Shown piece after piece: positions 35,411 to 37,221 of a DNA stretch of 64,000 bases; position 1 is the first letter of the stretch, and each line of letters begins with the position of its first letter. The DNA is from Escherichia coli (GTDB lineage: Bacteria > Pseudomonadota > Gammaproteobacteria > Enterobacterales > Enterobacteriaceae), in the NCBI RefSeq assembly GCF_024700885.2, contig NZ_CP117016.1; one strand, 5' to 3'. The notes beneath the pieces are model-generated. The model made no database searches and had not been told where the DNA came from. It saw only the letters and a program-made list of their open reading frames with translations. The translations under genes and the position numbers were made by a program.

Positions 35411-35695
35411 ATGCTTCAAAGTAATGAGTACTTTTCCGGCAAAGTGAAATCGATCGGCTTTTCCAGCAGCAGCACTGGTCGCGCCAGCGTGGGGGTTATG
35501 GTTGAAGGCGAATACACCTTCAGCACCGCTGAGCCTGAAGAGATGACGGTAATCAGTGGCGCGCTGAATGTGTTACTGCCTGACGCGACCGACTGGCAAG
35601 TGTATGAAGCCGGTTCGGTGTTTAATGTTCCCGGTCACAGTGAGTTTCATCTGCAAGTTGCCGAACCCACCTCTTATCTGTGCCGCTATCTGTAA
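35411..35695 (+). CDS. ppnP: pyrimidine/purine nucleoside phosphorylase (DUF1255)
   Basis: 94-aa [20 protein letters not shown]. Confidence 0.85.
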
Positions 35696-35902
35696 TTCCT
35701 CGCCTTCCCCTTGAACGGGAGGGCATTTTTCTGAAATGTCCTCTCTTTAACCCATAATAATATTTCCTTTGCTGGGATTTTTTCGATTTCCGATATATTC
35801 ATAATTCATCAAGGTTGATATAAATATCAGCGAAGATCTCCAGATATTTTTGCGGAACTGGCCACGATAAAAGATAAATCAGATGATGAATGGTGGCGTG
35901 CA

Positions 35903-36232
35903 TTGCTGCAAAGTCGCAATGATCATTTGCGCCAAACGGCATTGCGCAACGCACATACCCCGGCGTCTTTGTTAACGACATTGACTGAGCCTCAGGATCG
36001 GGCGTTGGTTATTAATAATCCACAGTTGGCTGCCGATGTGAAAACGACGTGGTTAAAAGAGGATCCATCATTACTCTTATTTGTCGATCAACCCGATCTT
36101 TCGCTGTTACGTGATTTAGTGAAAACAGGGGCAACGCGGAAAATTCGCAGTGAAGCGCGTCACCGGCTTGAGGAAAAACAAAAAACGCATAATATTGCTG
36201 CGCTAAAAATTATTGCCCGCCGTAGCGAATAA
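35903..36232 (+). CDS. ykiA: hypothetical protein with leucine-rich-repeat-variant-like helical repeats; possibly a gene remnant
   Basis: 109-aa ORF with a TTG start; the frame stays open upstream to about 35819 with no ATG; AT-rich upstream; symbol from position only. Confidence 0.4.
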   Translation: MLQSRNDHLRQTALRNAHTPASLLTTLTEPQDRALVINNPQLAADVKTTWLKEDPSLLLFVDQPDLSLLRDLVKTGATRKIRSEARHRLEEKQKTHNIAALKIIARRSE

Positions 36233-36237
36233 TTATA

Positions 36238-36296
36238 TGCCTGGTGTAGCTTCGTACGCCGGATAAGACGCGGCAGGCGTCGCATCCGGCATTAAA
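36238..36296. repeat. REP element between ykiA-like ORF and rdgC
   Basis: gcctggtgtag...cgccggataagacgcggcaggcgtcgcatccggca. Confidence 0.7.
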
Positions 36297-36309
36297 GGAA
36301 AATCAGCAA

Positions 36310-37221
36310 TTAACGTTGTGCTTCGCCACCTAATCCTTCAATCAGGTTTTGAATTAACGCTGCCAGTTCACCAGTCATCAGGATGAAATCGGCATCAAAG
36401 CGCTGGGCGAAATCTTCACGGTCGATATCTTCGTTTTGATCGCGCAACTCGTCGCAGAACTTCAGACGCTTGAGCGAACCATCGTCGCACATCACAAACT
36501 GAATGCGCTGCTGCCAGTCGAGCGCCAGTTTAGTCACCACTTTTCCGGCTTCGATGTGATTGGTGATCTCTTCGCTGGTCAGATCTTGTTTCTTCGCGCG
36601 GATCACTCCACCATCTTCCAGCAGCGATTTCAGCTCGGCTTCATCAAGCAGCTGGAAGCCCTGTGCCGCGCTGCCGGAGCGTACCCATTCGGTCAGCGTC
36701 AGTTCAATCGGGTTTTCCATGCTCAATGGTACAACCGGTAACGACCCCAGGCTTTTACGCAGTAATGCCAGCGTATCTTCCGCTTTTTTGGCACTGGCGC
36801 AGTCCACCATAATCAAACCATTAACCGTGTCGATCCACATCATTGTCTGGCTAAAACGGCTGAAAGCACGCGGCAGCAGAGAGTGCAGCACTTCGTCTTT
36901 CAGCGAATCTTTTTCGGTTTTCTTCAGCTTACGCGCCTGTTCCGCTTCCAGTTTGGCGATTTTCGCTTCCAGCGCCTGTTTAATCACCGGAGACGGGAGG
37001 ATTTTTTCTTCTTTGCGCGCGCAGATAACAATTTGACCATTGGCAACGTGCGTTAACGCATCGCTGTGCGATCCCATCGGAGGAACCCAGCCCATCTTCG
37101 CCATGTCCTGGCTGCCGCATGGGGTAAATGCCATCGAGGCTAGCTGTTTTTCCATCTCTTCTGCACGCAACGAAATCTCGCGGCTAAGACGGTAAACCAT
37201 TAAATTTTTGAACCACAGCAT
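36310..37221 (-). CDS. rdgC: recombination-associated nucleoid protein
   Basis: ORF 36310..37293 trimmed to [12 protein letters not shown] (303 aa). Confidence 0.92.

Follow-up and report, generated by a model that had tools for sequence, protein, structure and literature searches.

A rare allele of the Escherichia coli ykiA/DUF2773 pseudogene, fused to the tail of a neighbouring SF0329-family gene

The open reading frame (ORF) between ppnP and rdgC in a 64,000-nucleotide stretch of Escherichia coli DNA (hereafter the window) is a rare allele of the ykiA/DUF2773 pseudogene, already known, that carries the end of the adjacent SF0329-family gene as a fused tail. We consider it highly likely that the segment is a decaying accessory locus and not a working gene. 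A first-pass annotation, made from the sequence alone, had identified the ORF correctly as a gene remnant, but had missed the second of two deletions, the SF0329 tail, the terminator and promoter, and the known identity as ykiA.

The ppnP-rdgC locus and its open frame

The source DNA is from E. coli, with the gene order aroL-yaiA-aroM-ppnP-(remnant ORF)-rdgC-mak. The 615-bp stretch that separates the stop codons of ppnP and rdgC (35696–36310) had matches in 5,424 of the 5,426 complete E. coli genomes, with 100% identity to strain 1190. The features of the locus are as follows.

35411–35695: ppnP, per the annotation of the 100%-identical genome of strain 1190
35702–35724, + strand: intrinsic ppnP terminator, in which ATTTTT follows a GC-rich hairpin (GCCTTCCCCTTGAACGGGAGGGC)
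35725–35837, + strand: promoter and 5′ leader that survive from the former DUF2773 gene (ykiA promoter region), identified by alignment to the intact O145 locus
35819–36232, + strand: longest open frame, 137 codons plus a TAA stop (36230–36232)
35838–35842, + strand: junction of deletion 1, where the filler CTCCA replaces ~1,939 bp (the ATG and codons 1–646)
35843–36181, + strand: 3′ remnant of the DUF2773 gene (ykiA pseudogene), codons 647–759 of the 759-aa ancestor, with LRV/HEAT-like short-helix repeats
36181–36182, + strand: junction of deletion 2, 404 bp lost (GAAAAACAA joined to AAAACGCAT)
36182–36232, + strand: SF0329-family tail, the last 16 codons plus stop (KTHNIAALKIIARRSE and stop), in frame with the DUF2773 remnant
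36258–36290, strand not applicable: REP-type palindromic element (GCCGGATAAGACGC / GCGTCGCATCCGGC), an inverted repeat with 14-nt arms, 86% complementary
36310–37221, minus strand: rdgC, per the annotation of strain 1190

Translation from 35696 showed that an in-frame TGA (35816–35818) bounds the remnant frame upstream, and that from 35819 onwards no in-frame ATG or GTG precedes the TTG at 35903, the only conventional start-like codon in the frame. From this TTG, which has a weak SD-like GGTGG (35892–35896) 6 nt on its 5′ side, the ORF listing gives a product of 109 aa (35903–36232, + strand). The first-pass description of an ORF with a TTG but no ATG, in a frame open upstream to about 35819, was therefore accurate, and the peptide it quoted (...TPASLLTTLTEPQDRALVINNPQLAADV...) is found in the ORF translation. 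The first ATGs on the presumed transcript, at 35883 and 35886, are out of frame; the 30-codon ORF that they open lies within the remnant and runs from 35883 to 35975 (MMNGGVHCCKVAMIICAKRHCATHIPRRLC). In strain 1190, PGAP labels window positions 35840–36232 as a pseudogene ('DUF2773 domain-containing protein; incomplete; missing N-terminus'), and the pseudogene label recurs in all remnant genomes inspected. The exact 109-aa product has already been deposited as a 'DUF2773 domain-containing protein' (ATC13725.1 and others; 51 contigs).

The composition of the segment had also been called AT-rich and atypical for its neighbourhood. The GC content was indeed low in 35696–35839 (36.8%) and, less so, in the remnant (45.8%): the window as a whole has 51.1%, ppnP 51.9% and rdgC 51.5%. 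The deviation is modest and lies mostly in the intergenic/promoter stretch. This AT-rich segment consists of the ppnP terminator and the retained ykiA promoter and leader. A terminator scan placed an 8-bp stem (GC at 6 of the pairs), followed by a T run, 7 nt past the ppnP stop, and the hairpin is kept in every aligned structural allele. By blastn, window 35696–35837 was 96.5% identical to the 142 nt upstream of the intact-gene ATG in O145, and the window promoter region differed from that of K-12 at ~7 of 142 positions. In K-12, the ppnP-ykiA intergenic fragment carries a promoter that is activated by the BglJ-RcsB heteromer, with the start mapped by 5′-RACE and a mutagenesis-confirmed BglJ-RcsB binding site centred 79 bp upstream (PMC3950696). 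By analogy with K-12, transcription from the retained promoter probably still goes on in the window allele.

At the other end of the segment, the single REP-type palindrome sits between the stop of the remnant ORF and the convergent stop of rdgC, and is kept in every aligned allele. Against the Rfam model of the REP-derived naRNA4 it scored 27.8 bits at a permissive threshold, below the gathering score of 59.5.

The intact 759-aa gene and the loss of its 5′ part

The remnant ORF matched Pfam DUF2773 (PF10971) over model positions 1–81 of 81 with 145.7 bits (E 4.5e-43), exceeding the gathering threshold of 25 bits. With the remnant as query, a word-indexed protein search yielded nothing but short E. 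coli fragments (≤152 aa). On such short database matches alone one would suspect a small-protein family; the long relatives came to light in an exhaustive HMMER scan of 1.84 billion representatives, in which the ORF corresponded to the extreme C-terminus of much longer proteins. These long relatives comprise a contig-truncated protein of 342 aa (91% identity), which adjoins SF0329, rdgC and mak and so represents the same locus as the window, and others of 746–766 aa (36–43% identity), and DUF2773 lies at the very end of each.

Intact 759-aa DUF2773 proteins are encoded at the ppnP-rdgC locus of O145 RM9872 and O157:H7 F8797 (WP_122986368.1 and WP_120795310.1). The intact gene is 2,280 bp long, begins 143 nt after ppnP, and overlaps by ATGA with the SF0329-family gene behind it, which encodes 151 or 149 aa (O145, O157:H7). 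The SF0329 assignment comes from the intact 151-aa gene of the H2 allele, which matches Pfam PF25753 and NCBIfam NF049912 (80.7 and 93.7 bits); the O157 version has a different end (...AALKNYCPP, 149 aa). The 5′ part of the big gene was present in 447 of 5,426 complete E. coli genomes, the intact state (O145:H28, O157:H7) in about 8% of them, and the SF0329 interior is still present in 921. Beyond E. coli, a search of one genome per GTDB species with a 4-sequence alignment profile found full-length copies only in E. whittamii and Escherichia sp. E1V33, at 72–74% identity and likewise between ppnP and rdgC. The full-length ancestor that the first pass had proposed to look for in Enterobacteriaceae thus exists, and its view of the ORF as the remnant of a larger protein was upheld. 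A conserved orthologue of the small size with a defined start was not among the homologues found: the short ones are all E. coli fragments, flagged by PGAP as 'missing N-terminus'.

With a GC content of 42.5% for the big gene and 45.2% for SF0329, the module has a composition consistent with horizontal acquisition in the Escherichia lineage. The DUF2773 family is narrow, since a word-indexed search with the 759-aa protein returned only six relatives. A 746-aa relative with 49% identity lies at an unrelated locus of another enterobacterial genome, between sprT and a galP-like MFS gene on a Logan contig (SRR28530750; L007, 6001–8241), and has no SF0329 gene beside it; the big gene therefore moves independently of SF0329. 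Aligned to the 759-aa protein (L009, 2316–4595), the 81 positions of PF10971 are residues 679–759. The family definition appears to have been built on a pseudogene fragment and not on the full protein.

A blastn comparison with the O145 locus resolved the segment into three collinear blocks, the first two being window 35696–35837 (O145 1–142) and 35843–36181 (O145 2082–2420). The second block was 95.6% identical to the 3′ end of the intact gene, and DNA homology runs directly on across the junction of deletion 1. At the sequence level, a match to DUF2773 from end to end with this DNA identity is homology and not chance. In the intact allele, GA(A/G)GAT flanks both sides of the junction. The junction itself (GAAGAT-CTCCA-GATATT) is identical in the window, K-12, H2 and H37 alleles, and because K-12, H2 and H37 share it we regard deletion 1 as one old event common to most E. 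coli. A 70-mer across this junction was found in 1,210 genomes, an undercount, since nearby SNPs break the 28-nt megablast word; the 4,539 genomes in which at least 80% of the 615-bp query was covered give the better estimate.

The window remnant fits the ykiA pseudogene (b0392) of K-12 by its position between ppnP and rdgC, by the shared 5′ junction, and by the absence of a start codon and of the N-terminal 646 codons relative to the intact orthologue. The two also share the promoter region and the PGAP label, with a DNA identity of 96.6%. The window codons are residues 647–759 of the intact O145:H28/O157:H7 protein, at the same locus and behind the same upstream region.

The lost sequence encoded a putative signal peptide, a beta-helix domain and most of an alpha-solenoid. 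An AlphaFold2 model of the 759-aa protein (9-sequence alignment; mean pLDDT 88, pTM 0.75) has a beta-helix domain at about residues 68–176 and an alpha-solenoid of HEAT/ARM/LRV-like repeats at residues 186–758; the part retained in the remnant is helical with pLDDT >90. Residues 1–21 are hydrophobic and of low model confidence (MNRINILVICMVVFFMTGNACA/TEW), and presumably form a signal peptide. The Foldseek matches of the full-length model, at its solenoid, were the PP2A-A subunit, importins and designed armadillo proteins (TM-scores low, 0.13–0.27; E ~1e-6). Among models of anti-phage defence and phage protein families, PADLOC gave no matches for either gene of the intact module, and PHROGs only insignificant hits of unknown function.

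The first pass had also called the helical repeats LRV-like, and this held in part. Pfam LRV (PF01816; gathering threshold 21.6 bits) had no match in the remnant at E≤1. At the homologous repeat of distant full-length relatives, the same model matched residues 674–698 of P0057 (18.8 bits), residues 675–697 of P0067 (20.9 bits) and, above the gathering score, P0065 (28 bits). Moreover, bona fide LRV-repeat proteins were among the significant phmmer hits in several stretches (P0063, E 7e-7, in 7 stretches), hhalign aligned the domain to P0063 with 79.5% probability (E 1.5e-5), and short helices build up the alpha-solenoid of the AlphaFold model. Searches of PDB sequences, whether with the remnant or with the profiles of the C-terminal and N-terminal domains, turned up no LRV structure and nothing else of significance. 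The remnant resembles LRV (PF01816 and LRV_2, PF25591) and HEAT/ARM alpha-solenoids in its short-helix motif (...LRxxAxxNxHTPxxxLxxL...), but the low Foldseek TM-scores indicate a generic solenoid fold and no specific relationship to these families. 'LRV-like' would therefore be a fair description of the repeat type, short of membership of the remnant in PF01816.

The second deletion and the SF0329 tail

Alignment by blastn and of the alleles placed window 36181 at O145 2420 and window 36182 at O145 2825. The deletion between them removed the DUF2773 stop codon and everything from the TG of the SF0329 ATG through SF0329 codon 135, joining the last base of codon Q759 to SF0329 codon 136. The SF0329 tail lies in the DUF2773 frame because the two genes overlapped by ATGA and because of the 404-bp length of the deletion, and this explains the C-terminus of the ORF. 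The origin of the 16-codon tail was established by DNA alignment to intact SF0329 genes, the piece being too short for the SF0329 model. A 70-mer spanning this junction was found complete in only 25 of the 5,426 genomes.

K-12 carries a different lesion in SF0329, where 372 bp have been deleted in frame between imperfect direct repeats (AGTTAC(A/G)GCG), leaving the 27 codons of ykiD; the K-12-type junction was present in 3,491 genomes, so that the window allele, at 25, is rare by comparison. The 27-aa YkiD (MTQRPWSKLQRKTHNIAALKIIARRSE) was detected via a chromosomal epitope tag in rich medium (PMC6001520), from which it follows that the K-12 locus yields a translated mRNA. In the K-12 sequence (L002, 1986–2069), ykiD joins the first 11 codons of the 151-aa SF0329-family gene to the last 16. 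YkiD and the 151-aa SF0329-family protein end in the same 16 residues as the window ORF. They have a start codon of their own, however, whereas in the window, which has none, the tail is a C-terminal extension of the DUF2773 remnant. K-12 thus keeps the ykiA stop and the overlapping ATG of its 27-codon SF0329 relic. The hallmarks of YkiD, namely an ATG overlapping the ykiA stop and a 27-codon ORF, are absent from the window, where the ATG and first 11 codons are deleted; having lost both stop and ATG, the window ORF runs 16 residues further than ykiA, into the SF0329 tail.

The flanking SNPs of the window match an allele with intact SF0329 (H2-type) at 97.9% and K-12 at 96.6%. Since they are closer to the intact-SF0329 allele, the 404-bp deletion appears to have been a single event, independent of the 372-bp deletion of K-12. 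A route from a K-12-type allele by a further 32-bp deletion, with the same endpoints, was judged less likely, as the flanking SNPs match the H2 type.

In E. whittamii (L011, 7277–7342), and likewise in Escherichia sp. E1V33 (L012), all that is left of SF0329 after an intact DUF2773 gene is a 21-codon mini-ORF (MRSRRKTHNIAALKIIARRSE); the endpoints of the E. whittamii deletion differ from those of K-12 and the window. Three separate SF0329 deletions (K-12, window and E. whittamii) therefore keep the same 16-codon tail in a translated frame. If the deletions were neutral and independent, the chance of all three doing so would be about 1/27, and the shared retention is probably a coincidence.

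Allelic variation, alternative readings and meaning

Several alleles document further decay at the locus. The H2 allele carries a nonsense codon in the remnant; in strain UID2309220009 (L003, 1648–1989) the internal stop, TGG to TGA, falls at the codon equivalent to window 36050–36052, with the downstream SF0329 intact. A 3-bp deletion in the remnant occurs in L014 and L018. The H37 allele has lost the DUF2773 remnant wholly: in JE86-ST02 (L004, 1501–2201), a 320-bp deletion takes the remnant exactly up to the SF0329 ATG and leaves a frameshifted SF0329 directly behind the ykiA promoter. H40 is an IS1 replacement; in VL7S7 (L005, 1748–2445), IS1A replaces the entire ppnP-rdgC spacer.

We also estimated selective constraint. 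Between intact copies (O145 versus E. whittamii), dN/dS was about 0.19. Pairwise dN/dS on three remnant alleles was too sparse, and eight more were added; polarised against O145, these 11 alleles carried 19 synonymous and 29 non-synonymous changes, giving an omega of ~0.47, together with one nonsense codon and one 3-bp deletion. The ratio of 29 to 19 departs from the neutral expectation of 76% non-synonymous changes (one-sided p = 0.009). Constraint on the remnant is thus relaxed relative to the intact gene (~0.47 versus ~0.19), with omega still below neutrality. The frame was open in 10 of the 11 alleles, none of the strictly invariant family residues was changed, and divergence among remnants was small (dS 0.03–0.12). 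Some of the variants are probably older than the deletion or were brought in by recombination. An omega below 1 may reflect residual constraint, or a young age of the remnant together with polymorphism inherited from intact alleles.

The following history accounts for the window allele. The ancestral state was a low-GC 759-aa gene between ppnP and rdgC, overlapped (ATGA) by a 151-aa SF0329-family gene. A deletion of ~1.94 kb took the start and codons 1–646 while sparing the promoter and leader, as found in most E. coli, K-12 included. In the window lineage, the 404-bp deletion brought the remnant into one frame with the 16 terminal codons of SF0329 and removed the YkiD-type ATG. The resulting transcript would lack the original start codon with its ribosome-binding site, the export signal and the sequence for 85% of the protein. 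Translation from the TTG at 35903 would yield, if anything, a 109-aa cytoplasmic piece of a repeat scaffold that ends in a foreign tail and most likely has no function; residual function of the remnant is unlikely.

A contrary reading sees the remnant as a small protein retained for its function, a stand-alone LRV-like C-terminal domain of ~93–109 aa translated from TTG 35903 under the BglJ-RcsB-controlled promoter. It draws on the frame being open in most alleles, on the omega below 1, on the unchanged family-invariant residues, on a retained promoter that is inducible in K-12 (PMC3950696), on the SD-like GGTGG ahead of the TTG, and on the 92–93-aa products that gene callers predict in many strains. 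We nevertheless regard it as improbable. A start at ATG or GTG is lacking, and the transcript's first ATGs are out of frame. The remnant has been lost (H37, IS1), interrupted by a stop (H2) or given a foreign tail (window), with no state preferred. At a dS of only 0.03–0.12, an open frame would be expected even without selection. Lastly, according to the structural model, the remnant would be a fragment of a continuous solenoid with its export signal gone. The related idea that the remnants are not junk, in the sense that translation of the LRV-like domain and of the 16-residue SF0329 tail has been maintained for some function, for instance as a BglJ-RcsB-induced small protein, could invoke the three independent SF0329 deletions with the tail in frame behind a start codon or upstream ORF, as well as the omega of ~0.47; we give it slightly less credence still.

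It is very improbable that the segment matters as DNA or RNA instead, either as a promoter driving transcription convergent with rdgC, or with the leader and remnant acting as a regulatory RNA. All structural alleles share a conserved promoter and leader, and transcription heads towards the rdgC 3′ end with only the REP element between. Against this, no Rfam family reached its threshold, the terminator scan found no + strand terminator-like site after the ORF, a strain with the IS1 allele is viable without the region, and the intergenic/promoter identity of 95–96% equals that of the neighbouring remnant, with no extra conservation. That the locus is a bona fide small DUF2773 gene that was never larger, as the end-to-end match of the ORF to the 81-position Pfam model and the many database entries of 92–113 aa could suggest, has practically no probability left and is already refuted, given that the same 81 positions form the C-terminus of the intact protein in E. 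coli, E. whittamii and Escherichia sp. E1V33 and of the 746–766-aa relatives elsewhere, and that DNA homology is continuous over the deletion junction.

The decaying accessory locus is thus the reading that we retain. It carries little weight for biology at large: this is ordinary gene decay, a textbook example in which a low-GC accessory module, presumably acquired horizontally, decays step by step, and the object was already known through the pseudogene flag of the NCBI pipeline and as ykiA in K-12. For annotation, however, three points emerge. First, the 81 positions of Pfam DUF2773 are the C-terminal end of a 759-aa beta-helix and alpha-solenoid protein that is intact in O157 and O145. Second, YkiD, described in K-12 as a 'new small protein', is what deletion has left of an SF0329-family gene. 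Third, the window ORF is a chimera of two gene remnants, and database entries for the 109-aa 'DUF2773 protein' should be treated as pseudogene products.
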